Part shown: positions 4,540 to 59,439 of the stretch, one piece after another | Position numbering within the stretch: position 1 is the stretch's first letter | Layout: every line of letters starts with the position of its first letter | Assembly: GCA_036867785.1 (NCBI GenBank) | Contig: CP145409.1 | Span: forward strand, 1,054,001 to 1,118,000 | Source of the DNA: Plasmodiophora brassicae | Taxonomy: Eukaryota | Length of the DNA: 64,000 nt | Reading direction: 5' to 3' | Program-made: the position numbers and the translations under genes | The notes under the pieces: model-generated | Database searches by the model: none | Told to the model about the DNA's origin: nothing | Seen by the model: only the letters and a program-made list of their open reading frames with translations

Positions 4540-6033
4540 TTAGAATGCGATGCTGGTGCTAGTTCGTTTGTCCCCTTGTGGACGTGGTTTAACGAGAATG
4601 GTACTCGTATTGGATGATTCGAACTGAGCAAGGATGGCGTCCTCTTTGACAGTATCGATAAAGCTGTTCCATGCGCCTGGGTTGGCCACGCGGAACCTGC
4701 CCAGCGTATTCGTAAACATCAACGATAAGACAACTGTAGACGCCTTGTCGAACAGGCCTTTCACGAGCATCCCTCGTTGAATCAGGTCGCCTTCGGTGCA
4801 TCCGGGCGTGAAGACATTTCCGAACTGGCAGGTCGGGTCGCCGTCTAGGTTCAACTCGAACGGTGCATATGGTGCTAGGTACTGCCTGAAGATATGACAT
4901 GCCATCGCAGCCGACTTCAACGAGTTTTCGACAAACGTTCGACGGTAATCCTGGACAGCCTTCCAGAACAGCAGATTCTCCAGGGAGAACTCCAGCTCCA
5001 ACTGTTTCCTGTCAAACGGATATAAGCACTTCAACGAGGGTGCCCCGACGTCTCTTGCCTGAACGCTTCGAAGCCTGCTGGCGTAGACAAGAACCTTTCA
5101 AACAAACCGATATCGTCGGTTGCGCCGTCGAGAGCGACAGGGGGCTGCGAATATGAATGCCACAGGGGAATATGAATGGAACTGTTCACCAGACAGCAAA
5201 CGTTTAGATCGTTTCTCGGCAACGACCACAGACGATCCGCGTTACAATGTGAGCAACGCGGTGCAGCAGACGATACCGACGACGGTATTGACGCTGACCA
5301 TGTGTCCAGTGGCACTCGTGATCGGTCGGATTGCGAAGGCGTACATGACGACGCCGACGAGGGAGCACAGACCGATCTGTTTCAGGCACCGTTTGATGCC
5401 GAGAGAATCGGATACAATCCGCATCCGGTACGATAGAATGATGATCAGGACCATGCTAACGCCCATCTTGTACACACCAATGTTCACGAGTGTGGACGCG
5501 GGAGATGTCGGGTCCGCGTACGTGTTGTCGTTCAACGCGGTGAACAGCCCTGGGTATCTTGACGCATACCAGAACTCCACAATGGCGTAGACGATGGCGT
5601 TGACCACGACGTAGGCGATGCGGGGTCGTCGATCGAGCAAGCCGTGCGCAATCGTTAGCTTGGGAGCATCTGTCACAACGCTATCCGCCTTGTCCATTGC
5701 CTGCACAATCTTCAGCTGGCTCTGCGTCCGGTTGAACATCAGCCAGAGCGTCAGCGCCGCGATGGTGAACGTATCGGCAGCGAGCACCATGAAGAACGTT
5801 GGCAGGAAGGCACTCCAGAAAAACGGGACGCGGTCGTAGTACTCGTTCGTGGCATACAGTGAGAGTGCAAAGATCCAGGCGAACAGGCTCCCAGCCAGCA
5901 TCTCCATTGGGAGTCGCTGCCGAATTGGCCATCGGTCCATCCGGAGGCAGAAGAGGACCAGCCCAACCCCACCGTATACGAAAATTGCGACACCCAAGGC
6001 GAACAAGAAGGCCTCCACGCCGACGCTCTTCAT
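4540..6033 (-). CDS. 7TM-RGS protein, family A, copy A1 (3 exons)
   Basis: Seven hydrophobic segments at 6033-5246. Intron 5245-5182 and a second intron at about 5058-5009. RGS box: FERFLSTPAGFEAF, EFSLENLLFW, IFRQYLAPYAPFELNLD, LFDKA...LMFTNTLGRF. Confidence 0.9.
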
Positions 6034-6219
6034 CGCTGAGCCCCCTCCGGGTACCTCGATCTCTTCCTATATAGAACTAATAAAAACGTGTACGGTCGTA
6101 TCGCCTGGGCCGGACTGTTCGAATGAGGCCAAATGCCAATGGTGGCCGTTTGACTGTAGTTACAAAATCGTTCTGGACTGATCCCTTAGCGGTCATATTC
6201 GCACACGAATGCGAACATG

Positions 6220-7347
6220 TCATATCGGCATGGCCGGCGCGTGCATGGCCGGTGGTTCGATCACGATGTGATGTTTGGGCTCAACCGTGTCGTCCTTAAA
6301 GGGTTCGTCGTCGACAGTCCAAAAGACATAGGCAACGTAGATGGTCACCATTACGTCGATGAAGAATGACAGGGAGCGGAAAACCAACTGCATGCCAGGA
6401 GGCGACTCGAAGCCGAGGTGTGGCATACCAGCCAGAAAGAGAAGATAATTCGAGCACGCGTGCAGGACCATCTGCTTCCAGACGCCGGGCAGTGTGACCA
6501 TGAAGCGATGCCGCTGCCGATCGATCATGCGAGATATTGCTTGTCCGGACATGACGGCGCAGGCAACGTGAAACGGGATGCACAGCAGCGTCCTTATCAT
6601 GATCGTGGACAGCGACGTGCCCTCGCACGACATGACACGCCAGTAATAGAGCAGGTTCTCTGCAGTGGCAAACGATAACCCACTGGTGACGGCACACAAG
6701 GTGACCTGCAGGCGAGAGCGCGGTCGACCGAGACGCTTCGCTGCGACAGACGTTAGCCACCACTTGTACAACTCCTCCCAAACGCCCGGAGAGATTGCAA
6801 TCGCTATCAGGTAGAACACGTAGATCCTCCAGGTTCCCTGCTGCAACTCGTCTTTGGCGTCACGCCCGGACAGTACCATTTTCATGGCGACACGAGAGGT
6901 AGTCGTGTTGAGCACGTAGGGGATGAACGTACAGATGAACCCGAGCGCGTAGACCAGTGTCAGATCCGTGGTCGTCATGGGATGGACGCGGTCTCTACGC
7001 TGCTGGCGGAGCGCGTTCCACAGGAACAGGAGAGCAGTCGGGGACAACAGCATCGGGAACAGGTAGAACGACGACTTGTGGAAGCGAACTGTGAAGACGA
7101 CCCAGAGTAACAGGATCAAGCCCCAGAACAAGGCCGTCAACGCGCGGCCAGCGGACGTCGCCATTACAGCGGAACGACACGGCAGCACCTGATGACGACC
7201 TCGGAACGAGTGACGAACCTGCAGAAAACCTATAATTAGGCACACCGACAGGCCGAGTGTACGTAGTGTCGAACTTTGCACTGTGGCTGGCATGCGCTGT
7301 ACGTCCCAGGTGCATTCACCATCGCTATCGCCTTGGAATGCGATCAT
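6220..7347 (-). CDS. PrsW-family (glutamic-type) intramembrane protease
   Basis: Multi-TM protein with the four PrsW motifs: EELYK, GLSFATAENLLY, RTLLCIPFH and LHACSN. True start uncertain; a plausible ATG is at 7164. Confidence 0.85.
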   Translation of the reverse strand: MIAFQGDSDGECTWDVQRMPATVQSSTLRTLGLSVCLIIGFLQVRHSFRGRHQVLPCRSAVMATSAGRALTALFWGLILLLWVVFTVRFHKSSFYLFPMLLSPTALLFLWNALRQQRRDRVHPMTTTDLTLVYALGFICTFIPYVLNTTTSRVAMKMVLSGRDAKDELQQGTWRIYVFYLIAIAISPGVWEELYKWWLTSVAAKRLGRPRSRLQVTLCAVTSGLSFATAENLLYYWRVMSCEGTSLSTIMIRTLLCIPFHVACAVMSGQAISRMIDRQRHRFMVTLPGVWKQMVLHACSNYLLFLAGMPHLGFESPPGMQLVFRSLSFFIDVMVTIYVAYVFWTVDDEPFKDDTVEPKHHIVIEPPAMHAPAMPI

Positions 7348-8112
7348 CTATACCAGCTCTGTATACAGGCCGGCGCTGGTGTCTCTGACAAACCAGTTCG
7401 GTACGTGGTCGCTAATAATAGTTGGATTCTACCTACATACACATAGCTATGCACTGCCTGCACTGCTGTGGGTTGGTATGCCAAGATTTAGTAGCAGGCA
7501 CTAGTCCTCTCAGGGGGTTCATATACGTTCCTTCGACCGTTCAGATCAATGCAAGTCAGGAACCTCCAGAGGGTTCCATGAGGTTGGCGGCTGAAATACG
7601 CATTGTGCTTCAAGACGTCAGGCGCGCCCTTGTCACGGACGTCGGTGACGCTGGCAACCTAGTTGCGATCGCCCTTGCACAATCCTCGGCAAGTGCGCGC
7701 CTGACGTCGTGCAGCACGTGCTGGCGCGCTCGGGGATAAGTAAAACGTAATCTTGCGAAAAGAAATTATGATGCCACCTTTGATTGCCTGCCGAACCTTG
7801 CGGTTGCCATTGCTGCCTGCGCGCAAGCCCGGGTCGTTTCGATATCGGGCGTTGTAGAATGGTGCTCGAATACGGTCATTGCATCGTATACGTAGTTGAG
7901 CGCCAATATAATATTCACGGAATTGTTAGGGCGTCTCGATGCATTCGAGTGCATTAACCTCACCCATAGGTGTAGACATTTCGTCGCTCTCAGGGACATA
8001 TTCCGGGCATCCTCATGCGTTGTGCAACGCAACGATATGGTTTCTTCCACGCAATGATGTGTTTGTTTACCACACAGAGACAATGCTTGAGGTCCGGGAA
8101 CGCTATACGTTG

Positions 8113-9610
8113 CTAGAGAGGATTCGTCGGTCGAGGGGGTACAGGACAGCTTTCAGCCCAGGTGGGTTCGACGATAACGCCCGTCGTATGGGTCTCGAGC
8201 TCTGCCAGAATGGCATCTTCTCGGGCGCCATCCATAAAGTTCTGCCAGGAGTCTGGACGTGCCTTCCGAAACCTGACAAACGAGTTCGTGTACATCAACC
8301 TTAGAACAACCGCACGCGCTTCGTCGAACAAGTCTTTGGTCAGCTGGCCTCGCTGAGCAAGGTCGCCTCCGTTGCAGTCAGGCGTGAAGATGACCTGGAA
8401 TCGGTGGAGCTGGTCACCGTCCAGGTTCACCTCGAAGGGTGCATTTCGTGCCAGGTACCGCCTGTAGATGCGTAGCGCCATTTCCGCTGACCTTGGGCTG
8501 TTCGTGAAGGTTCGCCGGTACTCCTGGACGTCCTCCCAGAACAATAAATTCTCCAGCGCCAACTCCAACTCCAGCTGTTTCCTGAAGAGCGCTGTCAGAT
8601 TCGCGGCAAACTCAAGATGGTCAGGTCTTCCTGACTTGAAGGTTTCGAATCCTTCAGACGAGCATAAAAACGATTCGAACAGGCCCAGGTTGCCCATGGT
8701 CTGGTCGACGGGGTCCGGCTGCTGCGAGTACGAATCCCTTACCGGAATGTGAATGGATCTGTCCAGCGCCAAAGCAGGTCATTACGATTTTCTGTATATT
8801 CGAGCAGCAAGCGTCGCGTTACAATGTGAGCAGCACGGCGCAGACGACAATGGCCACGACGGAGTTGACGTCGACGACGTTTCCCGTGGCACTACGAATC
8901 GGCTGGGCAATGAACGCGTAAATGACGACGCCGACTATGGAGCACACGCCGATCCGTTTCAGGCTGCGTTTGATGCCGAGCGCATCCGACACGATGCGCA
9001 TGCGGATGGACAGGATGATGACAAGAGTCATGCTGACCCCCATCTTGTAGACGCCAATGCTCTCCAGAGTGGTAGTCGGCGACGTCGGATCCGAGAACGA
9101 GTCCGCATCGGCGGACGTGAACAGGTCTGGGTGCCTCAACGTGTACCCGACCGCAATGGCCGTGTAGACGATGGCATTGCCGACGACGTATGCAATGCGA
9201 GCGCGTCGACGAAGCAGGCCCTTTGTGATGGCCAGGCTGCGGACGGTTTGCGCGACGTTCTCAGCATCGGTTGCGCGTCGGGCGATCTTCAACTGGCCCT
9301 GCGTTCGGCTAAACATCAGCCAGAGCGTCCATGCCACGATGGTGAACGTGTCCGCAGCCAGCTGCATGAAGATCGCATTGGAGTACACGACCCAGAACGG
9401 CGGCATATAGTCGACGAGCGCGTTTGTGATTGAGCACGACAGCGAGAACAACCACGCGAACACGCTTCCCGCCAGCATCTCCATGGGCAAGCGCCTCCGA
9501 ATCGGCCACCGATCTAGTCGGGCACAGTACAGGACGAGCCCTGTCCCGCCATACGTGAAGGTCGCCACGCCCAGCACGGCCCAGAACACGACAACGCCAA
9601 TACTGTTCAT
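8113..9610 (-). CDS. 7TM-RGS protein, family A, copy A2
   Basis: Paralog of A1 (DRWPIRRRLPMEML, AADTFTI, IGVYKMG, DALGIKR) with the same intron positions. RGS ELALENLLFW...APFEVNLD...LMYTNSFVRF. Alternative in-frame ATG at 9634. Confidence 0.9.
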
Positions 9611-9759
9611 TGGGGAGGGCAATGGTCGTACCATCGATCGCTCGATTCATACGACGTGTATTGTGAAATCGACATGAGCTGGCGAGGCCCTTGTTGATCC
9701 ACCGCCAGACACGGCATCAAGAAATACGTCATCTTGTATGGGGCAGGGTCCCTCACACA

Positions 9760-10864
9760 TCAGATCCTTGTAGCGGTCGTCGGGGAGACAGTATGAACGG
9801 CTGCCGTCGTTTCAGAGAGTGCCACCTGATGTCGGCTGGCCGGGAACGGTTGCCGTCCGACCTGGCCCAGGACAGCACCGTCGTGCACGCGAGCGATGAA
9901 GTCGCACCAAATGTCAGGGTGCGCTACACGAAACCTGCCCAGGGAATTCGAGTGCATCAGTAGCAGGACCGCCCCAGATGCCTTGTCGAATACGCCTTTT
10001 GGGAACATGAATGGAACTGACAGCACATGAAACGAGGACAGCGCGACGTCTCCGAAGCGAAGCGCATCACGTTACAAGGTCAGCATCACGGCGGAGGTGG
10101 CCATGGCGACGACGGAGTTGACGCTGACGACGCCCCCGGTGGCATTCGTAATCGGCCCAGCAATGAACGCGTAAATGGTGACGCCGACCAACGAGCAGGC
10201 ACCAATCTGCCTCAGGGCGCGGTTGATCCCGAACGCGTCCGGCACGATGCGCATCCGGGACGACAGGATGCTGACGGCAACCATGCTAACGCCCATCTTG
10301 TAGACGCCGATGCTCTCGAGGAACTTGGCGGGCGATGCCTGACCCCAGAAGGGTTGCTTCTGTACTAAGGCAAACAGTTCAGGCTGCACGACCATGGTTT
10401 ATCCGATCGTTACGATCGTGTACAGAATAACGTTGACGGCGACGTACAAGATACGGGGCCTGGGATCAAGTAGGACCTGGCTGACGGCCAGACTACGGAC
10501 GGCGGCTGCGATGCGGCTCGTATCACTTGCGTGGGCGATGCTCCTGGTCTTGCGTCCGGTTGCACATCAACGAGAGCGTTAGTGCCGCAATGGAGAACGT
10601 GTCCGCTGCCAGCAGCATGAAGGTCGCAGGCAGGTACACCGACCAGAACAGGGGCAGGAGGCCACGAGTGCGTTCGTGACGGAGACGGACAGCGCAAGGA
10701 TCCAGACGCACAAGCTCCCAGACAGGATCTCCACTGGTAGGCGCTGGTGAATGAATGGGCTATCGGCCCATCTGAATGTAAAACAGAACGAGCCCGGCCC
10801 CTCCGTAGGCGAACATTGCTAAACCCAGTGCGACCCACAGGGCATCTACGCCGACGTCGTCCAT
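9760..10864 (-). pseudogene. 7TM-RGS family A pseudogene (A3)
   Basis: Starts MDDVGVDALW at 10864. Lesions: TGG>TAG stop at 10762-10760, an ATTC duplication frameshift, small deletions, TAA at 10401-10399, and a large deletion joining SIHVP directly to KGVFDKA at about 10000, which removes most of the RGS box. Confidence 0.85.
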
Positions 10865-10984
10865 CGTTGAGCCGCCTCCTCGGTACCTCGATCGCCTATG
10901 CACTGCGGAAACCAGCCATCGGTCGTTGGGCTTGTACCTATATGTATCATGCGTAGATTGCCTAGGCGCGACGCCACGCTCCTC

Positions 10985-12479
10985 TCAAAAGTCGTTACCT
11001 CGACTTGTCCCAGACCGACCAGGCTTGACGGCAATGATCGTGGTATGCGGTGTCCCGATCTGTGCCAGAATTGCATTCTCGTGCGCCAAATCCATAAAGT
11101 TCTTCCAGACGTCGGGATGGGCCTCGCGGAACCTGCCCAGCGAATTCCAGTACATCAACGACAGCACCGTCGTCGACGCTTTGTTGAAGCAGTCGCTCGT
11201 TAGGATCCCTCGTTGGATCAAGTCGCCCTCGGAGCACCCGGACGGGAATTTGGCCCTGAAGAGGCGCAGCAGGGCGCCGTCCAGATTTACTTCGAATGGT
11301 GCGCTGGGTGCCAGGTACTGTGCGAATATGTCAAGCGCCATACGGGCGGTCCTCGTACTTGAGCTCTCGGTGAACGACCGTCGGTAATCCTGGACGGCCT
11401 TCCAGAACAGCAAATTCTCCAGAGCGAATTCCGATTCAAGCTGCTTCCTGTTAACGTACAAGTATCAGCACGAGCGCAAGCTCAGCAGTGGCGCCACCGA
11501 TTTCTGACTTGAACGTTGCGAAGCCTTCAGGCGTCGATAGGAACACTTCGAACAGGTCCACATCGTAGACGGCCTGGTCGAGAGCGCCCAACTGTTGTGA
11601 ATACGAGTGCCACACCGGAACATGAATAGCTCTGTCCACCGATAAGACTCCTCACATGGGCCAGCTACAGGTGCGGCCCCATTACAGTGTGAGCAGAACG
11701 ACAGAGACGAGTATGGCGACGACTGCGTTGACGCTGAGGATGTGCCCAGTGACGTCCATAAGCGATGGGGACGCGAACACATAGACGATGAGGCCGACCA
11801 GGGAGCAACAGCCCATCCGTTTCAAGCTCCGTTTGATGCCGAGCGCGTCCGACACGATCCGCAGCCGGAATGACAGGGTGATGATAAGGACCATGGATAT
11901 GCCCATCTTGTAGACGCCAATGTCCTCGAGGATGCGCGCGGGTGACGATGAGCTCCACGTTGTATCCATCTCGATCACAGTGAACAGAAATGGGTACCTG
12001 CACGTGTAGGCCACGGCGACGATCGTGTACACGATGGCATTGGCGACGACGTATGCGATACGTGGTCGACGGCCGAGCAGACCCTTTACAACAGCCAGCT
12101 GGCGAACGGCGCTTCTCATTTGGCCGGCGTCGTCTACGGATTGGGCAACCTTCAGTTGGTCCTGGGTCCTGTTGAACATCAGCCAGAGCGTCAGCGTGAC
12201 GATGGTGAACGTGTCAGTCGCGAGTAGCATGAAGGTCGCAGGGATAAACAGCATCCAGAACGTCGGCGTGTAGTCGATCAGGGCGTTCAGGACGGACAGC
12301 GACAGGGCGAAGATCCAAACGAAGACGCTGCCGGCCAGCATCTCCATGGGCAGGCGCTGCCGAATCGGCCACCGATCCATTCGAAAGTAAAACATGGCCA
12401 GCCCAATGCCACCATACGTAAACGTGGCTACACTCAGCACGATCCAGAAGATGCCCACGCCGTCGTCGTCATTGGCCAT
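10985..12479 (-). CDS. 7TM-RGS protein, family A, copy A4
   Basis: 7TM exon 12479-about 11686, short middle exon (AIHVPVWHSY...FATFK), RGS exon EFALENLLFW...APFEVNLD...LMYWNSLGRF. Confidence 0.9.
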
Positions 12480-12849
12480 TGAGGGATCCTCTTTAGTCGT
12501 TGAGTGGTACCCCGGGGATCACGATAAATAACACAGGGCAGGTATTGTGGTATTGGTTGCAATCAGGGTGGCATATCGTTGAAGATATAGATCGGCAGGC
12601 GCTACCGAGTCGGCTACCGGCCCCTCCGCCCGTAGAGTAGGGCCTGTCGTCCACGTCGATCACGTTGCAATCGGCGACCTTCTCCTACAAAGGTGGAAAG
12701 ATGGTGCCCCGGCGACCCATCCAGACGCCATGCCTGGTTCCACGATCCCGACACCGGACCTAGGCCCCATATTACCAGATGGCAAGGTGCCATGCTCCTC
12801 GGCACACACGTATATTGCCAGCTTTACGGGAGCGCCATTACACTCAGCT

Positions 12850-14365
12850 TCATTCCTCGCCGGCTTGCTGCGTGTCCAGCGACTTGTTGGTTTCCGTCCC
12901 GCGCGGCTTCACAACGATCGTCATCGTATGCTGTGTCTCGAACTGGGCCAGGATTGCGTCCTCCTGGGCGCCGTGCATGAACTTCTCCCAGACGTCGGGT
13001 TGGGCCTCGCGAAACCTGCCCAGCGAATTCCAGTACATCAACGCCAGCACCGTCGTCGACGCTTTGCTGAACAGATCTCTCGTCAGGACGCCTCGTTGGA
13101 CGAGATCGCCCGCGCCGCATCCGGGCGCGAAGTTGGTCCTGAACAGGCGCAGCAGGTCCCCGTCCAGGTTCACCTCGAATGGGGCATTCGGCGCCAGGTA
13201 CTGCTGGAATATGTCCAGCGCCAACCGCGCTGACCGGGACGAGCTCTCGGCGAACGTTCGTCGGTAGTCCTGGGCGGCCTTCCAGAACAGCAGATTCTCC
13301 AGGGCAAACTCCAACTCCAGATGCCTCCTACGTGATCAACAAGGGATCAGCGAGACGTGCCGGGAGGGCGCGCGGCTGACACGTTTCCCGACTTGAACGC
13401 TGTGAACCCTGGGGTCGTACACAGGAACACCTCGAACTGGCCTATATTGCAGACGGCCTGGTCCAGCGCGCCCGGCCGATGCGAGTACGAATGCCGGACG
13501 GGGACATGGACCGATCTAATATACAACGGGTCACGATTGTCGATCGAGCGGGATGAATTGGAACGGCCGTTCCCTACAAGGTGATGACGATGACGCAGTT
13601 GATGACGGCGACGATGGAATTCACGCTGACGACGCCGCCGGTGAGCCCCGTTATGGGCCCGGTCACGAACACATAGATGACGACGCCGACCAACGAGGAA
13701 ATGCCAACCTGCTTCAGGCCGCGTTTGATGCCGAGCGAATCGGACACGATCCGCAGCCGGTACGACAGGAAGATGATCAGGAGCATGCAGACGCCCATCT
13801 TGTACACGCCAATGTTCTCCAGGATGGTGGCAGGTGACGTGGCATCCCAGGACAGGTCGCTCTCGACGAGCGTGAACAGCTCCGGGTACCCAGACGCGTA
13901 CCAGACCGCCACGACCGTGTACCCGACAGCGTTGACGACGACGTAGGCAATGCGCGGTCGCCGATTCAGCAACGCCTGAATGATCGTCAGCTGTCGAACG
14001 GCGCCGCGCAACCGGTCGGCGTCGTCGACGGACTGGACGATCTTCAGCTGGTCCTGCGTCCGGTTGAACATGAGCCACAGGGTCAGCGCCACGATCGTGA
14101 ACGTGTCCGCTGCCAGCAGCATGAACAGCTGCGAGATATACACCATCCAGAACGCGGGCGCGTAGTCCACGACGACGTTCATCGTCGCCAGCGACACGCC
14201 GCACAGCCAGGTGAACAGGGCGCCAGCCAGCACCTCCATCGGCAGGCGCTGACGAATCGGCCACAGGTCCATGCGGATCCAGAACAGGGCCAGCCCGACG
14301 CCACCGTACGCGAGCACGGCCACATCGGTCACGATCCAGAAGATGACCACGGCCGCGCCAGTCAT
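12850..14365 (-). CDS. 7TM-RGS protein, family A, copy A5
   Basis: Same three-exon structure and motifs. The start lies only about 90 nt downstream of the alpha-actinin stop. Confidence 0.9.
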
Positions 14366-14454
14366 TGTCCTCCCCCAAGGGGATCGGTACGCCCGACCAC
14401 GATCGTCTTAATAGGAAACTGTATTGCAACATCAGCAGCAGCAGCGGCCGCTGC

Positions 14455-16065
14455 TCAAAGCGCTTTGAAGGTCTGGGCGACGAACGCGCGATAGTCGAGG
14501 AGGTCGTCATTGTCAACAGCGCGGGGGATCGACGCCACCAGGTAGTCGTGGACCTCCTTCGGGAGCGCGCACGACGTCAGCTGATGGGTCGACAGGAACG
14601 CGCCGTTGTCGGCCAGCTGGGCGAACGACTCGGTGACTTCCTCGGGCGTGTCCCGGTCGGCGTACAGGTCCCCGAGGAACTTGTGGAACGCGTCCTTCGG
14701 CACGCCGCTGTCGGTCGTGATGCGGTCGACGAGCGCCTCGAACGCAGCCTCGGTCTTGAACGGGACGCCCAGCGAGTTGCACGCCGCCTTGAATTCGGGC
14801 TTCGACAGCAGGCCGTTCCTGTCGGCGTCGAAATGGGCGAACGTCGCCTCGAAGTCGGCGAGCTTGTCGGCGTGCGTCGAGTCGCGCTCCGCCTTCTTCA
14901 CGAACGTCAGGCGGTGCTGGCGCACCATGTCGGCGTACGACCGCTGGGCACCGTTCAGCCTGTCGAACGCCGCCTGGATCGCGTCCGACGACAGGTCGGT
15001 GGCGAACGGGGCGCGCCCGTTCACCCGGAGCTCGGTCTGGATCTCGGCCATGATGGCCTCCAGGTCCATCATCTCGGCGACCTTGCCCGGCTTCTCCGAC
15101 ACGACGAACTGGCGCAGGTCGCTGAGCAGGGCGAGGGTCCTCTCGACGGTGTCGACCTCGAGCTCGCGAAGCGTGACGCTGAACTTGCCGGCGGCCGAGT
15201 CGACCCAGGCGAGCAGGTCGCGCGCGCGACGCTCGTACTCGTCGCACCGGGCCGACATGGTCCTGGAGAACTTGGCGAACGCGGCGACGCGGTCGATGGC
15301 CAGGCGCCGGTGCTCCTCGGAGGCGAACCGGTGGAAGAACTCGGCGACGTACGTCATGACGGAGCGCTCGTCCGGGCGAGGCACGGCGACGATGTCGTCC
15401 ACGTCGAGCAGGCGGGGGATGTCCAGGTGCTTCTCGGCGACGGAGAAGGCGAGTTCGAGGTTGGCGGCCGCGTCGTTGCTGGCCAGGGCGTCGTCGTAGG
15501 ACAGGAGGTCGGGGCGATGGCGGTGGATCAGGGCGCAGAACGCCAGGCCGGATTTCCAGTCGCTGGAGAAGTTCTGCAGGTCCATGAGGTCGGCCTGGTT
15601 GACCTTGTACCCCTTGGTCTGCTTGCGGCACCATTGCAGGAGGCCTTCGCGGGCCGTCATGTCGTCGACCGAGATGCCCTTGATGGCGTACTCGAGGATG
15701 AACGCCCAGAGCATGCCGAGGACCATCTTCTTGTCGTGCTCGATCAGGTGGTGCGTCTTGAGGAAGTTCGTCTTCACGTTCGCGTCGTCGATCATCTTGA
15801 ACGCCAGCGTGATGTTGTCGATCCGGACGATGTCGGACGGGGCCGGCGTCGTCATCTTCGGGATCGACACGCCGAACAGGGCGTTGAGCAGGCGCGCCAG
15901 TACGATCCCGTCGTCGAACGCGCCGGCGACCTGGTCCTCGGGGATCGTGGCGAACCCGCGTCGACGCAGGTGGTTGTTCGCCCAACGCGTGAACGTCGTC
16001 GCCTGCATGCGCTCACGCTCGTCACGAAGCGCCTCCACGTTGCTGGGGCTGGACGGGGCTGACAT
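14455..16065 (-). CDS. ACTN: Alpha-actinin-like actin cross-linker (CH-CH, short rod, EF-hands), intronless
   Basis: QATTFTRWANNHL, LGMLWAFIL, LLQWCRKQT..DWKSGLAFCALIH, PDERSVMTYVAEFFH, EF-hand FDADRNGLLSKPEF and terminal LDYRAFV. ATG at 16065. Confidence 0.93.
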   Translation of the reverse strand: MSAPSSPSNVEALRDERERMQATTFTRWANNHLRRRGFATIPEDQVAGAFDDGIVLARLLNALFGVSIPKMTTPAPSDIVRIDNITLAFKMIDDANVKTNFLKTHHLIEHDKKMVLGMLWAFILEYAIKGISVDDMTAREGLLQWCRKQTKGYKVNQADLMDLQNFSSDWKSGLAFCALIHRHRPDLLSYDDALASNDAAANLELAFSVAEKHLDIPRLLDVDDIVAVPRPDERSVMTYVAEFFHRFASEEHRRLAIDRVAAFAKFSRTMSARCDEYERRARDLLAWVDSAAGKFSVTLRELEVDTVERTLALLSDLRQFVVSEKPGKVAEMMDLEAIMAEIQTELRVNGRAPFATDLSSDAIQAAFDRLNGAQRSYADMVRQHRLTFVKKAERDSTHADKLADFEATFAHFDADRNGLLSKPEFKAACNSLGVPFKTEAAFEALVDRITTDSGVPKDAFHKFLGDLYADRDTPEEVTESFAQLADNGAFLSTHQLTSCALPKEVHDYLVASIPRAVDNDDLLDYRAFVAQTFKAL

Positions 16066-42403: not shown

Positions 42404-42425
42404 TCAATACATCATCGCTTCAATG

Positions 42426-51064: not shown

Positions 51065-51125
51065 GCAACGTATTCCGGTACACTGAACTGTTTAGAACGC
51101 AATCCTCCTATTTCGTATCTTATTA

Positions 51126-53066
51126 TCATAACGTCGTTGTACTCGAGACGGCACGGAGCTGCTCCAGCGCCGACTGCTTGAACGGCCCGATCATGCACGG
51201 GCGGTACTGTTTGCTGTAGGCGTGCGTGAATTGCTCAGCGACGTTATGGTCCCCGTCGCTGGCGAATGGTGCATGAAGGTACCGATTCGACAGGTCGGGG
51301 CGTTCCCGTCGCGCGTACGAGAAGTCCACCTTCACCGATTGCTCAAGCTGGTCGACAGCTTCGCGTTCTGGTGGCCTTGTCATCGATGTCGACCGCGACC
51401 GCGTCTCAACCTTGGCAGGGGTGGCATTCCGCTTCTGATACTGCTGCTCGGGAGCTGGTTCGTTGCCGGTTTCAATATGGCCCGTTGTGGGATCGCTGGG
51501 CCAGATGTACCCATCTTCGATCGCCGCGTCTCCGGCGTCTTCATCAGTGTCGTTACCGTCCTCATCATCGCTATCACTGATCACGGCCCGGGCACCACGA
51601 CGGGCGTTGACAGCACGAACGCGATCGTATGGCATTGGGAGCGTTAGTGACCCGTCCAAGGTTCCACCATGGGACGCATGCAGATACGTGCTGTTGAGCC
51701 GGCGTTCAGTATCGGTCATCTGGTGCTGGTTCTGCTTCGCGACAGCGCCGAACTGGCCTTGCAAGTCATTGCGATAGGATTGCTGGCGATGGATTCTGTC
51801 TTCCTGTTGCTGGCGCCGCCGTTCCCTGTCGACGGCTTCCTGTTCTTTGAGGCGCTGCCTCTCCTGCCGATTCGCTTCGCGTGCTTGCTCCATTCGCTGG
51901 GCACGCTCAGCCAGCAGGTGCTCGTTGGCGGACTTGCACTGTTTGATCAGCTCACGACGCTGCTTCTTCTCCTGTTCAACCCGGGCGTCTTGCGCTTGAT
52001 CCCTCATACGCTGGTAATGGAGCACGTACTGCATCTCGCGTTCCTGCTGCTCCTTCTGAATACGCATGGCGTCCTGCCCGACCATCTCCATCTTAGCCTG
52101 CTTCTCGTAACGTTCCCGCTTCTTCTGTTCGTCTCGCATTCGCGCTTCTTGCTCGGCGCGTTCCATGGCCCGCATCCGGGCCACGTCCTCCTCGCGAGCT
52201 CTCGCCTTCAGCGCCTCCTTCGCCCGGTTCATTGCCTCGTTCTGCTTGTACGCGTCGGCGAACTGAGTAAGACGCGCCTCTCGCTCACTCTGCTCCTTCC
52301 TCCGTTCCACTTTATGGAGCTTCTTCAGCTCCTTCAACCTGCGATTGTCTTCATCGATGCGCCCCTGGCGCTCTCGAGCCATCGCATCCATCTTCATCTT
52401 GCGCATCGTCGTCATGACCTCGTAGATCTCCTTCTTCTCCGCCTGTTTCCTAACAGACTCCTCCTGCTGACGTCGACGCTCGTCTTCAGATCGCTGCTGC
52501 ATCTCCTGGAGCTCAGCGGCCTTCATCTGTTCCCGAGCCGCTACCTGCTTGTCGTGCACGCGCATCTGGTCTAGCAGCTCCCTCCCGATCCCCTTCCGCT
52601 TACGCTGCTCTTCCTGCTTCAATAGCTCTGCCTGCATGTTCGCATACCGTTTCTGCAGGTCAATGACCTTTGCCCAGTCGTCGTTATCCATGTTCCGCTT
52701 GCCGGCGAGGTGACCATATCCGGACACCGGGGTTGGACCATTCGTCAGCGATTGCTCCATCTCTGGTTGCTCCTGGTGCTCCGTTCGCTGAGGCAATGCG
52801 GGTGGTGTCGCCGTTGCGACAGCGACGTCAACAAATGTGTTCTGGCGGACGCGATCCGCAACAGCAGAGGCGGCATCATCGGTTGGCATGTGCAGTAGGT
52901 CATCAATGGCGGCGTCGCCGCTCGTCAAGTAGTCCTTGGCAAGAGACACCAGTTCGTGATGATGACCGAATCGTTTTTCCAGACGGTAGATGATCGACTC
53001 GCGTTTCCGCTGCCGGATCAGCTGATCCCGCTGCCTGCCGGCAGCGCCGGGCGCCGCCGTCGCCAT
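51126..53066 (-). CDS. Long E/Q/R/K-rich coiled-coil protein (TPH-domain-like, possibly ciliary)
   Basis: 646-aa ORF; DDWAKV followed by about 300 aa of charged heptads ending YRNDLQGQ...MTDTERRLN. Confidence 0.6.
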   Translation of the reverse strand: MATAAPGAAGRQRDQLIRQRKRESIIYRLEKRFGHHHELVSLAKDYLTSGDAAIDDLLHMPTDDAASAVADRVRQNTFVDVAVATATPPALPQRTEHQEQPEMEQSLTNGPTPVSGYGHLAGKRNMDNDDWAKVIDLQKRYANMQAELLKQEEQRKRKGIGRELLDQMRVHDKQVAAREQMKAAELQEMQQRSEDERRRQQEESVRKQAEKKEIYEVMTTMRKMKMDAMARERQGRIDEDNRRLKELKKLHKVERRKEQSEREARLTQFADAYKQNEAMNRAKEALKARAREEDVARMRAMERAEQEARMRDEQKKRERYEKQAKMEMVGQDAMRIQKEQQEREMQYVLHYQRMRDQAQDARVEQEKKQRRELIKQCKSANEHLLAERAQRMEQAREANRQERQRLKEQEAVDRERRRQQQEDRIHRQQSYRNDLQGQFGAVAKQNQHQMTDTERRLNSTYLHASHGGTLDGSLTLPMPYDRVRAVNARRGARAVISDSDDEDGNDTDEDAGDAAIEDGYIWPSDPTTGHIETGNEPAPEQQYQKRNATPAKVETRSRSTSMTRPPEREAVDQLEQSVKVDFSYARRERPDLSNRYLHAPFASDGDHNVAEQFTHAYSKQYRPCMIGPFKQSALEQLRAVSSTTTL

Positions 53067-53190
53067 TGTCAGGGATTGATCAGTTACCAGGAGGGCGCCC
53101 AGATACGAGCTCGACCCCGGGGGGGCACGAGCCAGCCAGATATTCCGATCTGGTCACGCCAATGCACTGTTCCGAATAAATAACGCATTG

Positions 53191-53907
53191 TTACAGTGTC
53201 GGGTGCGCCGACCCGAGCCGATCCGAGAACGCCTGCAGGGCGTCGTCGCTGATGCGGGCCCGTTTCTGCGCGGTTTCGCTCGTGTGGACGCGCACCCGCG
53301 AGATCAGGTGCCGCATGCTGTTCGGGATGGCTTCGATCGTGGCCGGCTTGCGTTTGAACCCGCGGTGATGGTTGTCGACGATTCGTTTCAGGGTGCGGCG
53401 TGCGTCCGCATCCGAACATCCCGTCACGTTCGACAGCTGCTGAACGGTCTGCTCCAGCATCGACGGCGTATCTGGCTGGAGCGTCATGCTCAGGTATGGG
53501 ATCAGGTGGTCGGCCACAATGAACGTCGGCGTGATCTCGGGGCTCGACAGAATGCAGACGGCGACGAACATCTTCACTTCGTCGTACAGCGTGTCGACGT
53601 CATCGTACCGGGAGCGAATATTGTACAGAACTTGTTTCATCGCGGTGAACAGAAGCTTGGGAGAATCGGGAACAGACGCGGGGGCAGCGGCCGCGATGGC
53701 GGTAGATTCGACGGGGGCTGAAACGAGAACTGGCGGCCGGACAATTCGCGGCCATCGTCCGTCATCGCTCTCCAGTTGCGCATCGAGGAGGTCCGACACC
53801 TTCAAATCAAGCGCGTCGGCCGCTACTGTTACCCGTTGCGCCATGTGCCGCAGTGACGACAACGATTCGAGCAATCGCTCCCGGAAGTCATCCTCGCTGA
53901 GCGCCAT
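53191..53907 (-). CDS. Hypothetical protein
   Basis: 238-aa ATG ORF with globular helical composition. No family recognised. Confidence 0.55.
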   Translation of the reverse strand: MALSEDDFRERLLESLSSLRHMAQRVTVAADALDLKVSDLLDAQLESDDGRWPRIVRPPVLVSAPVESTAIAAAAPASVPDSPKLLFTAMKQVLYNIRSRYDDVDTLYDEVKMFVAVCILSSPEITPTFIVADHLIPYLSMTLQPDTPSMLEQTVQQLSNVTGCSDADARRTLKRIVDNHHRGFKRKPATIEAIPNSMRHLISRVRVHTSETAQKRARISDDALQAFSDRLGSAHPTL

Positions 53908-54025
53908 CGTCGCCTCGCGGCTGTGAGCTGCATCTCGCCACGGAGTTTATTTCGCACGCAATACGGATGGTATCGCCATCTGCTTTTCTGCTGCCGAGTT
54001 CATGGCCTGCTTCAGGGATCCACGT

Positions 54026-55474
54026 TTACTGTGGTATAATGGATGCAGTCCTCCTCTCGCCAACGGTGACGAATATCGGACCGTTCTGAGCCGTATTGCG
54101 TCGGTCTACGGATTGATCGCCTACGCCATGCGACATGAGGACTCCCCGCAGGCGCCGTTCATGTTCGACCTTCTCGGCGAACTGCTCCCAGGCGTCCGAG
54201 TGCTCCAGCTTGAACCTTACAAAGGTATCCGAGTCCATCAGCCTAAGGATTTCCTTCTGGGCGCTCGTGAACATATTCCTGTGCAGGAGCGTGCTATCCT
54301 TGATCTGGTTGTTGCGGAACGCTCGCACAAAACTGGACGACAGGTTCACCTCCTGAGGAGCTCCTGAGGCCAGATACTCGTGATAGATCTGTCGCGCCAT
54401 GCTGAGGTTGTCATCCGAGGTACGCCTCGCGTAGTCGTCCCTGAACGACGCGACCGCGATGAAGAAGTTGAGGTTCTCACTGGCCATCTCTTTGTCGCAG
54501 AACGCCTTGAATTTCGCACAACCTTCTGGGCTCTTGATGAACTTCTCCAGCAATTGCAGGTCGTCATCGGAGTCGGTGTCGGCCATAAAGATTGGGAAAA
54601 CCATGGTCGTGATGACCAGGGTCGCAAAGACATACCCGAAGTTGTGCACTTCAGTGAAGACATCCGTCCAGAACGCATCCCTGGTAAATGCGGCCCTGGT
54701 CAGCGCGTCGATGTTGATCGCACCAAGACCGATGAAGTCGAGGGCCACAAACACGGCCTGCATGATGTTCAACATGATGTAGAATTGCATGCGGTGCTCG
54801 ACGGAAGGCGTCAGCGTCAACTGCTGTAGCAGGTTGCGCATGCGGACGACAATGCTGACCGTCAGGGCAATGATAATGATGCCCTCTGCGTGGTAGACCA
54901 GCTGTGGGTAGACGATGGACATGGAGACAGTCGGGGCCACCGCTTGTGCAATCGGGTACAACGCCAACGATAGAACCGAATACGCCTCGTATGCCAGGAA
55001 CTCCCAAGTACGACCGAACGAAACGCCCAGATGCTTCTTAACCGTAACATGCCAGTAGGCGAGGCCGAGAAAATGTGCACTGCTCTTCAGCGCGAATGAT
55101 ACGTTCAGCAGCTCGTTGCAGATTGGGAGCAGTGTAAACTGATCATAGGCGCTCCACTGGGCGGCCGGCAGTGGTACCACCTGGACAACGTCCTTGTGCG
55201 CCGAGTACTGGGTGACCAGGTATCCCTCCGTATACTTGATCTTGACGTTGATTGATTGATAGATGACCATGAGAATTAAGGAGACGAGGTTCAGGATGGC
55301 CAGGATGCCTTGGATGTTGGGCTGCCGTGTCCTCACGCTGATCGGGCGCAAGACGGCGATCCCCTGCTTGTTCTGTACGATACGTATCACCAGGTATACG
55401 GTCGAGATCGTCATCAGGGCGCACCGCTCAACGTACGACAGCGGTGCCAGATGTGACAACGCCAGCGGCAACAT
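54026..55474 (-). CDS. 7TM-RGS protein, family B, copy B1 (intronless)
   Basis: Seven hydrophobic helices, then RGS: FKAFCDKEMASENLNFF, ARQIYHEYLASGAPQEVNLS, FTSAQKEILRLMDSDTFVRF. Confidence 0.92.
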   Translation of the reverse strand: MLPLALSHLAPLSYVERCALMTISTVYLVIRIVQNKQGIAVLRPISVRTRQPNIQGILAILNLVSLILMVIYQSINVKIKYTEGYLVTQYSAHKDVVQVVPLPAAQWSAYDQFTLLPICNELLNVSFALKSSAHFLGLAYWHVTVKKHLGVSFGRTWEFLAYEAYSVLSLALYPIAQAVAPTVSMSIVYPQLVYHAEGIIIIALTVSIVVRMRNLLQQLTLTPSVEHRMQFYIMLNIMQAVFVALDFIGLGAINIDALTRAAFTRDAFWTDVFTEVHNFGYVFATLVITTMVFPIFMADTDSDDDLQLLEKFIKSPEGCAKFKAFCDKEMASENLNFFIAVASFRDDYARRTSDDNLSMARQIYHEYLASGAPQEVNLSSSFVRAFRNNQIKDSTLLHRNMFTSAQKEILRLMDSDTFVRFKLEHSDAWEQFAEKVEHERRLRGVLMSHGVGDQSVDRRNTAQNGPIFVTVGERRTASIIPQ

Positions 55475-55744
55475 GATGAACCACCGCTCTTGGCAGGCAA
55501 ATGCTGCACACGGATGGTGCGATCGCCCATAGGTACCAGCCCATATATCGTGCGAATCTCCATGACCTTCGATTGGTCAATCTCACAACGAAGGGCGGGA
55601 GGCACTGCTGAATAGCCGTAACTCTTCCCCCAAGCTCGACTTCCAACAGACCGACATTAGGAAGTTGCCATGAGGCACTCAGCATTGGTAAAGAAGGGGA
55701 CTGCGCCGACAACTCCTATTATGAATATACGCTGCGCAGGACCT

Positions 55745-57187
55745 TCATTTGTTGGATCGGCTGTCGAGCGGCATCTTTGTCTCGCCAACGTGGACTTGTA
55801 CACTGCCGTACTGCATGAGCCGGGACTGATCACCGACGCCCTCCGACTGGAGAGCGCCTCGGAGACGTTGCTCCTGCTCGACCTTCTCGGCGAATTGCCT
55901 CCACATGGCAGGGTTCTCGACCTTGAATCGGGCAAACGTGTCCGCGTCCATCAACTTGAAGATTTCTTGCTGCGCGATAGCGAACGTGTTCTCGTGTAGA
56001 AGCGCGCCGTCTATGAACTGGTTGCTGCGAAATGCTCGCACGAAATTGGACGACAGGTTCACTTCCTGAGGGGCGCCAGGCGCCAGATATTCGTGATAGA
56101 TCTGTCTGGCCAAGCAAAGGTTCTCATCCGGTGATCGCTTCGCGTAATCGTTCTTGAACGACACGGCGGCGAGGAAGAAGTTGACGTTCTCGCTGGCCAT
56201 CTCCTTGTCGCAGAACTCCTTGAACTTCGCTCGCCCCTCCGGGGTCAAAATGAATTTCTCCAGCATTCGTACGTTGCCAGCCGACTCTGCCTCGTTCGCG
56301 AATATGGGGAACACCATGGTCGTGATGACAATTGTCGCAAATGCATACCCGATGTTGAACACCTCGGTAAAGATGTCCGTCCAGAAGGCATTCTTTGTGA
56401 AGGCACCTCTCGTGATCGTGTCGATATTGATGGCACCGAGGCCCACGAAATCCATCGCCACAAACACCGCCTGCAGGATGTTCAGCGTGATGTAGAATTG
56501 CATGCGACGTACGGCGGATGGCGGCAAGGACAACAATTTCATCAGATTGCGCATGCGAACAACGATGCTGACTGTCAATGCGACAATAATGATGCCCTCC
56601 ACGTGGTAGATTAGTTGCGGGTACACGATGGACAACGAGACGGTTGGAGCGGCGGATTGTGCAATCGGGTACAACGCCAATGACAGAAACGAATAGGCCT
56701 CATACGCGACAAATTCCCATGTTCGCCCGAAAGACACTCCCAAATGTTTCTTCACCGTCACGTGCCAGTAGGCGAGGCCGAGGAAATGTGCACTGCTCTT
56801 CAGCGCGAACGCCACATTCAGTAACTCATTGCAGACGGGAAGCAGTGTGAACTGATCGTAGCCGTTCCACATGCCCGCCGGCAGAGGTACAGCGTGGACA
56901 ACGTCCTTCTGCGTCATGTACTCGGTGACCAGGTACCCCTCCGTGTATTTGACCTTGACGTTGATGGCGTTGTAAACATCGTAAACGATCAGGGAAATGA
57001 GGTTTAAAACGGCGACGATGCCTTGGATGTTGGGCTGTCGCGTCTTCGTGTTGATCGGGCACAGGACGGCGATTCCCTGCTTGTTCTGTGCAATGCGAAC
57101 CACCAGGTATAAGAGCGATATTGTCAGCAGAGCGCACCGGTCCATGTACGACAACGGCGGTAGATGCGACAACACAATCGGGAACAT
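55745..57187 (-). CDS. 7TM-RGS protein, family B, copy B2
   Basis: Collinear paralog of B1 (KYTEGY, FALKSSAHFLGLAYW, FGRTWEF, SENVNFF, APQEVNLS). Start MFPIVLSHL assigned by homology. Confidence 0.92.
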   Translation of the reverse strand: MFPIVLSHLPPLSYMDRCALLTISLLYLVVRIAQNKQGIAVLCPINTKTRQPNIQGIVAVLNLISLIVYDVYNAINVKVKYTEGYLVTEYMTQKDVVHAVPLPAGMWNGYDQFTLLPVCNELLNVAFALKSSAHFLGLAYWHVTVKKHLGVSFGRTWEFVAYEAYSFLSLALYPIAQSAAPTVSLSIVYPQLIYHVEGIIIVALTVSIVVRMRNLMKLLSLPPSAVRRMQFYITLNILQAVFVAMDFVGLGAINIDTITRGAFTKNAFWTDIFTEVFNIGYAFATIVITTMVFPIFANEAESAGNVRMLEKFILTPEGRAKFKEFCDKEMASENVNFFLAAVSFKNDYAKRSPDENLCLARQIYHEYLAPGAPQEVNLSSNFVRAFRSNQFIDGALLHENTFAIAQQEIFKLMDADTFARFKVENPAMWRQFAEKVEQEQRLRGALQSEGVGDQSRLMQYGSVQVHVGETKMPLDSRSNK

Positions 57188-57999
57188 TGGTGTACGACGG
57201 TCGTTCGGATTGTGCCATACTTGTTGACGCACCGATCCGATCTGCGACCGTCCATGGTACTGAATAATATGGCAAATATCTTCCCGGCGAGTTCCGCAGC
57301 ATCCCTTTGGCCCTGAGAGATTGTCATTTATCGGCGCATGGCCACTGGACGTGTGACAGCGGCAATCGATCGTCGGGTTTCTTCTGCATCAGCTGGACAG
57401 ATTCTACCTGAGAAGAACACGAAGGCATGCTGAGGCGCCAACCTGCTTGGTCCAGAAACTTCGAATGCTCGCCTCGATGCCAAGGACGGGCATGGTCCCA
57501 GGTTTCAGGTGATTGGGCTTCCCGCGAATGCGAAGTGGCAAGCGCACGCGCTCGTGAGGCTTGGAGAAAGCAGACGGGGAGGCTCGCTCTGCATCGCTCG
57601 GCTGATATTCGCTGACGATCGCGGCGGGTTCTTCGACGGAAGGCAGTTCAGGATTTGAACAGATTCCACCCACCTCTTCCATTCACAAACATGCACGCTG
57701 GACTCTACGCCTGTATCGTAATCTCTGCGCCCAACGGCGCCGTTCTAGCCTCAGCATCAGCGATGGGCTGACCCAAGTCAATCAATCCAGCCTGCGGCTC
57801 CCGCACCGGCGCCGTCCACCTGTGCGTGCTGACGTCGATCGTACCGATGGCGTGACCGAGCATCGTCGTGTGGGAATGAACGCTCTCGACCTATTTGCGT
57901 TAACGTACATCGCGGTGTCCACAGAGTTGCCACTGTCCAGGTTTCGAGTTTCGCTGCGTTCTAGATTATCACTGCCACCCACGTGCCGGGCATTCATGT

Positions 58000-59439
58000 T
58001 TATACACGAGCTGCAGAAGTGGTTTGGCTCGTACCGCTAACGTGGATATGGACGCTGCTGGTCGGAATGAAGTGCGACTGGTCGCCGACGCCATTCGACA
58101 GGAGGGCACCTCGGAGACGTCGCTCCTGATCGACTTTCTCGGCGAACTGGTTCCACACTGCTGGGTTCTGGACCTTGAATCGCGCGAACGTTTCCGAATC
58201 CAACAACTTTAGGATCTCCTGCTGCGCGTATGTGAACGTATCTTCGAATAGAAGCGTGTCATCTTTGAACCCATTGGCTCGGAAACCTTCCACGGCATCG
58301 AAGGACAAGTTCACTTCTTGAGGGGCTCCAGGAGCCAGGTATTCGTTGTAGATCTGCTGAGCCAGGAGCAAGTTGTCCTCATGTGTGCGCCTCGCATAGT
58401 CGTCCTTGAACGCTGCGACCTGCAGGACGAAATTGATGTTCTCGCTGGCCATCACCTTCTCGCAGAACGTCTTGAACTTGGATCGTCCTTCTGGGGTCCT
58501 GATGAACTTCACCAACATCCGCACGTTGTCGGCAGCATCCGTTTCTTCCAGGAAAATGGGGAACACCATGGTCGTGATCACTATTGTCGCCAGCGCATAG
58601 CCAATGTTGAATATCGCAGTGAAGATATCTGTCCAAAAGGCGTTCTTCGTGAACGCGCCCGTCGTCATCGCATCGATGTTGATGGTGCCGAGGCCGATAA
58701 ACTCCAGCGCCACAAATACTGCCTGCATGACGTTCAGCGTGATGTAGAATTGCATGCGGCGCACCATCGAAGGAGGCAGCGACAGCTGTTGCAGGAGGCA
58801 GCGCATGCGAACGACGATGCTGATGGTCAGGATGACGACAATCAGGTTCTCAGCGTGGTAGACCAGCTGAGGGTATATGATCGACATGCCCACAGTGGGG
58901 GCGGCGGCTTGTGCAATCGGGTACAGGGCCAGCGATAGCACAGAATACGCTTCGTAGGCGAGGAACTCCCAGGTCCTTCCGAAGGACACGCCCAGCTGCT
59001 TCTTGACGGTCACATGCCAGTACGCCAGCGCCAAGAAGTGTGCGCTGCTCTTCAAGGCGAATGTCACGTTGATCAGCTCATTGCAGACCGGCAGCAATGC
59101 GAACTGGTCATTGGGACTCCACTTGCCGGCGGGCAGAGGGATCGCTTGGACAACGTCCTTCTCCGCCAAGTATTGGGTGACCAGGAATCCCTCCGTGTAC
59201 TTGATCTTGACGTTGATGACGTCATACACCTGGAAAAGGATCAAGGCAACGAGGTTCAGTGTGGCGATGAGGCCTTGGATGTTGGGCTGTCGCGTATTCA
59301 TGTTAACCGGGCGCAGCACGGCGAACCCATGCTTATTCTGGCTTAGGCGCAGTACCAAATAGACGAGCGACACCGACAGCAACACGAATCGTTCGATGTA
59401 GGAGAACGGCGCTAGGTGAGACAACGCCAGCGGGATCAT
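58000..59439 (-). CDS. 7TM-RGS protein, family B, copy B3
   Basis: Collinear paralog with start MIPLALSHL, SENINFV, APQEVNLS and LLDSETFARF. Confidence 0.92.
   Translation of the reverse strand: MIPLALSHLAPFSYIERFVLLSVSLVYLVLRLSQNKHGFAVLRPVNMNTRQPNIQGLIATLNLVALILFQVYDVINVKIKYTEGFLVTQYLAEKDVVQAIPLPAGKWSPNDQFALLPVCNELINVTFALKSSAHFLALAYWHVTVKKQLGVSFGRTWEFLAYEAYSVLSLALYPIAQAAAPTVGMSIIYPQLVYHAENLIVVILTISIVVRMRCLLQQLSLPPSMVRRMQFYITLNVMQAVFVALEFIGLGTINIDAMTTGAFTKNAFWTDIFTAIFNIGYALATIVITTMVFPIFLEETDAADNVRMLVKFIRTPEGRSKFKTFCEKVMASENINFVLQVAAFKDDYARRTHEDNLLLAQQIYNEYLAPGAPQEVNLSFDAVEGFRANGFKDDTLLFEDTFTYAQQEILKLLDSETFARFKVQNPAVWNQFAEKVDQERRLRGALLSNGVGDQSHFIPTSSVHIHVSGTSQTTSAARV

Follow-up and report, generated by a model that had tools for sequence, protein, structure and literature searches.

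A 64,000-nucleotide stretch of the Plasmodiophora brassicae genome (contig CP145409.1, positions 1,054,001-1,118,000) was analyzed and is referred to here as the window; all coordinates below are window positions. The window contains two tandem arrays of genes in which a seven-transmembrane (7TM) domain is followed by a C-terminal regulator of G-protein signalling (RGS) box. Array A (4.5-14.4 kb, minus strand) is composed of four intact three-exon genes and one decayed copy. Array B (54.0-59.4 kb, minus strand) is composed of three intronless genes. The interval from position 4540 to position 59439 extends from the A1 stop codon to the B3 start codon. The arrays are read here as two lineage-restricted, tandemly duplicated families of receptor-like GTPase-activating proteins (receptor-GAPs) in P. 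brassicae that probably arose by separate fusions. The window is GC-rich (52-66%) and eukaryotic, with short introns, and its proteins are identical or nearly identical to NCBI and UniRef records named Plasmodiophora brassicae.

The Pfam scan was run on the 122 stop-to-stop open reading frames (ORFs) of at least 140 amino acids in the window, with the curated cut-off of 23.9 bits for the RGS family (PF00615). Seven of the 122 ORFs exceed this cut-off, with scores of 36.5-67.2 bits, and all are on the minus strand. An initial annotation of this DNA had described eight genes, seven intact and one pseudogene, in two tandem arrays, and had suggested the RGS scan as a check. The scan recovers 7 of the 7 intact genes, and the eighth gene (A3) is decayed as described. 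A3 has an early stop after approximately 34 codons, plus frame changes. Compared with A4, it contains indels of 4, 1, and 2 nucleotides and is missing approximately 330 nucleotides of the RGS region. It aligns with the A4 protein (tblastn) at 41% identity in the membrane part and 58% in the RGS tail. The genes and the RGS-matching ORFs are listed in Table 1.

Table 1. RGS-matching ORFs and gene models of arrays A and B, in window coordinates.
Feature	Position (nt)	Strand	Score, structure, or public record
RGS-matching ORF	4543-5097	-	36.5 bits
RGS-matching ORF	8116-8778	-	57.2 bits
RGS-matching ORF	10988-11464	-	47.4 bits
RGS-matching ORF	12853-13335	-	46.2 bits
RGS-matching ORF	54029-55576	-	67.2 bits; RGS at ORF residues 344-456
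RGS-matching ORF	55748-57388	-	62.2 bits
RGS-matching ORF	58003-59625	-	57.2 bits
A1, intact, 459 aa	4543..6033; exons 6033-5246, 5181-5059, 5008-4543; stop 4540-4542	-	public model P0178/PBRA_004844, 459 aa
A1 introns	intron 1 5245-5182, GT..AG; intron 2 5058-5009, GC..AG	-	gene model
A2, intact, 467 aa from first Met	8116..9634; exons 9634-8823, 8758-8636, 8581-8116	-	public model P0006/PBRA_004846, 459 aa
A3, decayed copy (pseudogene) of family A	about 9763-10895	-	stop, frame changes, indels
A4, intact, 459 aa	10988..12479; exons 12479-11686, 11631-11509, 11447-10988	-	public model P0004/PBRA_004847
A5, intact, 462 aa	12853..14365; exons 14365-13578, 13515-13393, 13327-12853	-	public model P0005
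B1, intronless 7TM-RGS, 482 aa	54029..55474	-	single ORF; same as P0003
B2, intronless 7TM-RGS, 480 aa	55748..57187	-	single ORF; same as P0002
B3, intronless 7TM-RGS, 479 aa	58003..59439	-	membrane domain residues 1-~297; RGS box from ~300

Each RGS ORF of array A has an ORF of 263-271 codons with approximately 7 hydrophobic segments just upstream. The same three-exon structure is present in all four intact A genes. The membrane domain lies entirely within exon 1, whose last two bases open a codon directly after helix 7. Exon 2, of 123 nucleotides, covers the linker plus the first helix of the RGS box, and exon 3 encodes the remainder of the box. The introns are 50-65 nucleotides in length, with one located directly after transmembrane helix 7 and one within the RGS box. 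Seven of the eight are GT..AG introns, and intron 2 of A1 is GC..AG. The gene models are 459-467 amino acids long. The public models that join the membrane and RGS parts (PBRA_004844, PBRA_004846, PBRA_004847, and one further record) are 459-462 amino acids long. In array B, the hydrophobic part and the RGS box share one open frame from Met to stop. These gene models agree with the initial annotation, which gave two introns for A and none for B. Its claim of a 7TM domain fused to a C-terminal RGS box is likewise upheld by the ORFs, the gene models, the public models, and the bridged introns described below.

Contigs from four public sequencing runs, belonging to four studies, were placed on positions 4500-14499 (array A only), where uncovered stretches are uninformative. 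A contig from run X4 joins position 8823 to position 8758, which is exactly intron 1 of A2, a 64-nucleotide GT..AG intron (GTAACG..GGACAG), with 102 nucleotides on the shorter side. This joint connects the membrane exon to exon 2. A contig from run X1 skips 50 nucleotides and, with the allowed shift of one nucleotide, corresponds exactly to intron 2 of A1 (5058-5009, GCAAGA..TGACAG), joining the two RGS exons. Two of the eight predicted A introns are bridged by contigs in this way, both at the predicted borders. No whole A gene lies within a single contig among the four placed runs. The membrane and RGS parts are on one transcript, in B by the single ORF and in A by the two bridged introns and the public models. 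Unspliced membrane and RGS exons, which the initial annotation had named as evidence that would count against a fusion, are not what the A2 contig contains.

Two additional features were seen in the placed contigs. The A3 pseudogene region (9663-10897, minus strand) has contigs in three of the four runs (X1, X5, and X10), and the decayed copy, or read-through into it, seems to be present in these libraries. Within exon 1 of A5 (14207-14264), a contig from run X4 (depth 3.7, 38 nucleotides on the shorter side) skips 56 nucleotides bounded by GT..AG on the plus strand. Either antisense transcription or an artefact of assembly could account for this skip.

The ratio of nonsynonymous to synonymous substitution rates (dN/dS) was computed pairwise for six A pairs and three B pairs. 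The A pairs have dN/dS values of 0.24-0.35 with dS of 0.77-1.25, and the B pairs have dN/dS values of 0.16-0.19 with dS of 1.0-1.2. When each half of the protein is considered on its own, dN/dS is below 0.45 for both the membrane and the C-terminal part, and the membrane domains alone range from 0.14 to 0.42. The duplications are old, and both halves of the proteins are under purifying selection.

An alignment of the seven RGS boxes has 23 invariant columns, which include a 'YLA..AP.E.NL' stretch present in both A and B. Residues E34, N35, E76, N78, L79, R121, and F122 are invariant in all seven boxes. They correspond to the E-N of '(S/L)EN', the E-x-N-L of 'E(V/L)NL', and the R-F of the near-C-terminal helix. 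Human RGS2, RGS6, and RGS7 carry these motifs at aligned positions, and the E-N, E-x-N-L, and R-F positions are those that contact the G-protein alpha subunit (G-alpha) in the RGS4-Gi structure. The B boxes have Phe, Val, or Leu in place of the usual Trp of 'FW', and the A boxes contain an 8-residue insert that is not found in B. Each A or B box is approximately 30-32% identical to human RGS2 or RGS6 by hand count on printed alignments. A PDB sequence search with full-length A4 and B3 matched only RGS chains and returned none for the membrane parts. A metagenome scan with the A and B RGS alignment confirmed 3 of 304 pattern matches and found no close relative. The three are two near-identical proteins that combine an RGS box with cyclic nucleotide (cNMP) binding, and one multi-pass membrane protein whose RGS box is split.

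The membrane domain of family A shows 7 segments in a hydropathy scan in three of the four intact genes (A1, A4, and A5). A2 shows only 4 at the same threshold, yet it aligns throughout. Positive charges are located in the odd-numbered inter-helix loops, a pattern that fits an N-out, C-in topology with a cytoplasmic RGS box. Conservation among the four paralogs is highest in inner loops 1 and 3, where 62% and 73% of the columns, respectively, are invariant. Word-based searches with the A4 membrane exon and with the A alignment returned only paralogs from the locus and no relatives beyond array A. A metagenome scan with the A membrane alignment gave 154 pattern matches, of which 0 were confirmed. 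Pfam searches at E<=10 gave no meaningful family for any A or B membrane domain or for five RGS-less paralogs of B, and at this cut-off the A domain has no match to the class C G-protein-coupled receptor (GPCR) family (7tm_3, PF00003). A protein-language-model search supplies leads only. It places the A membrane domain nearest to fungal (Zoopagomycota) clusters; the best look-alike cluster (score 0.92) has 7tm_3 in 15% of its members, and in a lower one (score 0.81) 34% of the members carry RGS. As judged from sequence comparison, the A membrane domain is an orphan without detectable relation to that of B.

The membrane domain of family B shows only 4-5 segments in the same hydropathy scan. 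The AlphaFold model of B3 residues 1-325, built from a 58-sequence alignment, has a mean confidence score (pLDDT) of 91.9 and contains seven long helices, with a beta-hairpin in the first outer loop. This model superposes on solved GPCRs, and the B membrane domain is confidently predicted to have a GPCR fold. The outer loop hairpin and the outer helix ends carry polar residues that are invariant in the B family (K80, Y81, E83, G84, and D256). The RSF family, as it is presented in the available text of a choanoflagellate GPCR survey (PMC12716839), was considered for B and ruled out, since the B model does not contain an extra helix between helices 6 and 7.

A word-based search with B3 returned only paralogs from the locus. 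An exhaustive search with the B profile identified 153 relatives at E<=1e-3, with 68 of these at E<=1e-10. The top non-self matches are RGS-less P. brassicae proteins of 353-401 amino acids, namely PBRA_004749, PBRA_004751, and three further records (the five are P0009, P0010, P0158, P0159, and P0161). Over about 270-315 residues, spanning all seven helices, these paralogs share 40-45% identity with B1-B3, and they end about 50-100 residues after helix 7. PBRA_004749 and PBRA_004751 match the family profile of B with E values of 1e-71 to 1e-66 and differ from B in having no RGS box. The RGS-less paralogs are located outside the window, on the 2.1-Mb contig that also carries the A genes, and have consecutive accession numbers approximately 105 lower than the A genes. 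If accession order follows gene order, they would make up a third cluster at a distance of some hundred genes. This cluster is likely the parent family of array B.

The RGS scan of the B relatives covered 71 of the 149 listed non-self proteins; most of the 78 omitted are either short fragments or proteins that rank lower and are about as long as the membrane domain. No RGS was found in 70 of the 71. The remaining one, a 636-residue metagenome protein, has a sub-threshold match of 20.3 bits approximately 200 residues after helix 7. A profile built from the A and B RGS boxes, run against 158 sequences, finds only this protein and its cluster mate. Sources name the RGS-less paralogs of B 'THH1/TOM1/TOM3 domain-containing'. 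The corresponding Pfam family (PF06454) has no match at E<=10 in B1-B3 or in the five RGS-less paralogs. An Atlas cluster with the THH1/TOM1/TOM3 family scores 0.84 to the B membrane domain; both this cluster and the name given by the sources are leads only.

The A and B proteins were compared directly. By BLASTP, A4 and B3 align only in the RGS region (29% identity over 168 residues, E 1e-16), and nothing significant is found between their membrane parts. Profile comparison of the membrane domains with hhalign gives a probability of 0.05% with a shallow B profile and 0.09% with the 58-sequence B-family profile. Cross-searches with hidden Markov models (HMMs) of the two families give E values of at least 0.3, and no A protein is present among the 150 listed matches of the exhaustive B-profile search. 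The A and B membrane domains are not detectably homologous by these sequence methods. The initial annotation had seen no common motifs in the two domains by eye, and BLASTP, hhalign, and the HMM cross-searches all lead to the same result.

Each protein would have a short outward N-terminus, seven membrane helices, and a cytoplasmic RGS box beginning about 20-30 residues after helix 7. The RGS box would be held at the membrane and would speed GTP hydrolysis on G-alpha, by analogy with AtRGS1 of plants, TvRGS of Trichomonas, and the 7TM RGS proteins of Naegleria. The 7TM part would place this GAP activity and possibly gate it on a cue. The A and B proteins may have GAP activity, which ligands may control as the initial annotation had proposed, and P. 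brassicae may possess a self-activating G-alpha.

The 7TM part could instead be a mere membrane anchor or sorting device, with the proteins acting as constitutive tethered GAPs or scaffolds and not as ligand-regulated receptors. The proteins have no ectodomain, with N-termini of approximately 10 residues, and no ligand is known for any relative. The B relatives are named after the THH1/TOM1/TOM3 group, whose members are endomembrane proteins. A plain anchor would not need the five invariant polar residues of the B family, and the purifying selection on both membrane domains also speaks for more than anchoring. The anchor is considered unlikely.

For the origin of the two families, we infer the number and order of fusion events from the comparisons above. 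Family B would have begun when one member of a widespread family of 7TM proteins, which otherwise stand alone and have no RGS box, acquired such a box, and family A would have arisen separately on another scaffold. The membrane domain of B has close relatives that are RGS-less; therefore, two separate fusions are the more parsimonious explanation. The initial annotation had also proposed that the architecture was assembled twice. The part of this claim that concerns the membrane domains stands, as the domains are not detectably related by sequence and the close relatives of B do not carry the box. The RGS boxes themselves may or may not have separate origins, given the unsettled deep branches of their tree.

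Several observations weigh against two independent families or limit the comparison on which they are based. The A and B boxes are followed by a common 'P-x-x-W-x-x-F' stretch after the RGS core, and their linkers are similarly short. The shared stretch could reflect a common rhizarian RGS lineage or the capture of one family's box by the other. The A-B RGS pairs are 26-36% identical (56-81 bits), and the B boxes are 33-36% identical (60-63 bits) to the environmental cNMP-binding RGS protein; the two score ranges overlap, and a common RGS source is therefore possible. The RGS tree (11 rows) gives support only to the A clade and the L001/L002 pair, with deep branches unsettled and long branches flagged, and it neither supports nor opposes monophyly of the A and B boxes together. 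The AlphaFold model of the A membrane domain, made from a 4-sequence alignment, has a pLDDT of 41.7 and is unusable for a structural comparison of A with B. All proteins of the GPCR fold may share a very deep ancestry. The runs placed on array A are listed only as 'RNA? (a guess)', although the spliced joints seen in them suggest that they are likely RNA.

These points bear most directly on a variant in which two fusions drew on one RGS source, the box of one family having been captured behind the 7TM gene of the other, for example through a transcript already spliced or through duplication nearby. The two fusions would then not be independent as far as the box is concerned. The two arrays lie near each other, B is intronless while an intron splits the RGS box of A, and the C-terminal extension of the box is common to both. 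The best A-B pair, at 81 bits, also scores above B against the environmental RGS protein. The A and B boxes are only as similar to one another, however, as each is to human RGS2 or RGS6, approximately, and with dS within the arrays already near 1, any capture would be old. Given these distances and the unsettled tree, the variant is judged unlikely.

A single ancient 7TM-RGS fusion, after which the membrane domains diverged past recognition and the RGS-less relatives of B lost the box secondarily, is highly improbable: the order of parts, the short linker, the shared stretch after the RGS core, the location of A and B 40 kb apart on the same strand, and an RGS tree that does not separate them would all be accounted for, but many independent RGS losses would be needed in a family of 153 relatives in which the closest RGS-less paralogs are 40-45% identical to B and only 1 of 71 scanned members has a weak RGS-like tail, no sequence method finds an A-B membrane signal, and the intron patterns differ.

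The architecture of both families is of the already known 7TM-RGS receptor-GAP type. Aspergillus GprK is a fungal 7TM-RGS protein. Such proteins are reported in many bikonts, chytrids, filastereans, and ichthyosporeans, along with RGS radiations in rhizarians, in De Mendoza et al. 2014 (PMC3971589). Naegleria fowleri has a set of 28 7TM RGS genes; their boxes were shown to act as GAPs in isolation, and the expansion was proposed to be an adaptive radiation that serves to sense external cues (Bosch et al. 2022, PMC9283941). The statement in the initial annotation that 7TM-RGS proteins are usually of low copy, and the novelty that it implied, are overstated in light of what these two sources report (PMC3971589; PMC9283941). 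The accessible sections of two papers on oomycete 'GPCR-bigram' proteins mention RGS only in passing (PMC6033456, PMC5784254).

AtRGS1 has the same layout, with seven helices and then a cytoplasmic RGS box in one polypeptide, and it is proposed to be a membrane GAP on G-alpha (PMC3865004; PMC3386157). It is single-copy in plants, while the two P. brassicae families number 4+1 and 3 copies, and the likeness is one of architecture alone. The 7TM RGS proteins of N. fowleri are also an expanded protist family with a C-terminal RGS box; many of the members have large ectodomains (GPS, EGF, lectin), which the P. brassicae proteins do not have (PMC9283941). The P. brassicae genes further differ from those of N. 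fowleri in being arranged in two compact arrays with unrelated membrane domains. TvRGS of Trichomonas vaginalis is another membrane-embedded RGS protein of a protist and accelerates GTP hydrolysis on a fast-exchanging G-alpha (PMC3865004). It belongs to another supergroup and is likened to the P. brassicae proteins by architecture alone. Both AtRGS1 and the Trichomonas 7TM/5TM RGS proteins act on fast-exchanging G-alpha (PMC3865004). MoRgs7 of Magnaporthe, also a plant pathogen, has a 7TM domain with an RGS or RGS-like domain and is linked to endocytosis-associated signalling (PMC6405168); here too the likeness is one of architecture alone.

Public records label the genes of the two arrays only as 'RGS domain-containing protein'. 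Literature searches that included Plasmodiophora found no paper describing these genes and none describing P. brassicae G proteins. The 7TM-RGS proteins, described across eukaryotes, invert the usual receptor logic in that the receptor turns G-alpha off and not on. To this the locus adds the same architecture twice within 55 kb on unrelated membrane scaffolds. The likely parent family of one array, itself RGS-less, still exists in this genome, a help in dating such fusions and understanding how they arise. P. brassicae is an important and genetically intractable crop pathogen. A broader proposal, regarded as distinctly improbable, is that Phytomyxea built receptor-GAPs twice on different seven-helix scaffolds, one of them TOM1/GPR137-like, and that the seven genes, and not GPCRs acting as guanine nucleotide exchange factors (GEFs), are the main G-protein input. 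Known members of the TOM1/GPR137-like family are endomembrane proteins. If the proposal were true, this input could serve zoospore or plasmodial sensing of host-root or soil cues, and the parasite would offer a compact natural setting in which to study how a 7TM domain can gate an attached GAP.

Other ORFs between and around the arrays were also examined. The initial annotation had placed two RGS-less 7TM genes between the arrays. One of these is probably the ORF at 33628-34911 (plus strand), which has 428 codons and approximately 7 hydrophobic helices after an N-terminal part of about 120 residues and matches no Pfam family. The ORF at 28822-30153 (minus strand) is LMBR1-like, and the claim of two such genes is only partly right. 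The Leu-rich ORF at 51651-52571 (plus strand), which has seven hydrophobic segments, was rejected as a 7TM candidate, being only an antisense shadow cast by a coiled-coil ORF of 675 codons rich in E, R, K, and Q (51129-53153, minus strand). HMM searches found no relation of any of these three ORFs to A or B (E>1 for 33628-34911).

The ORF at 6223-7347 (minus strand), located between A1 and A2, matches the PrsW family of intramembrane proteases (PF13367, E 2.3e-16), which is mainly bacterial. Its contig depth in the four placed runs is 22-180, compared with about 2-9 for the A genes. Three ORFs within 2352-4388 (minus strand) are antisense to an HSP70 gene (2313-4352, plus strand) and match NAD-GH (PF10712), with E values down to 3.5e-52. 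We take this family to be a known antisense-of-Hsp70 artefact, and the match is not a gene. At the edge of the window, the ORF at 17-1426 (minus strand) combines two domains that are unusual together, a protein kinase domain (residues 5-210), cut short by an intron or by the end of the window, and an ANTH domain (residues 281-420).

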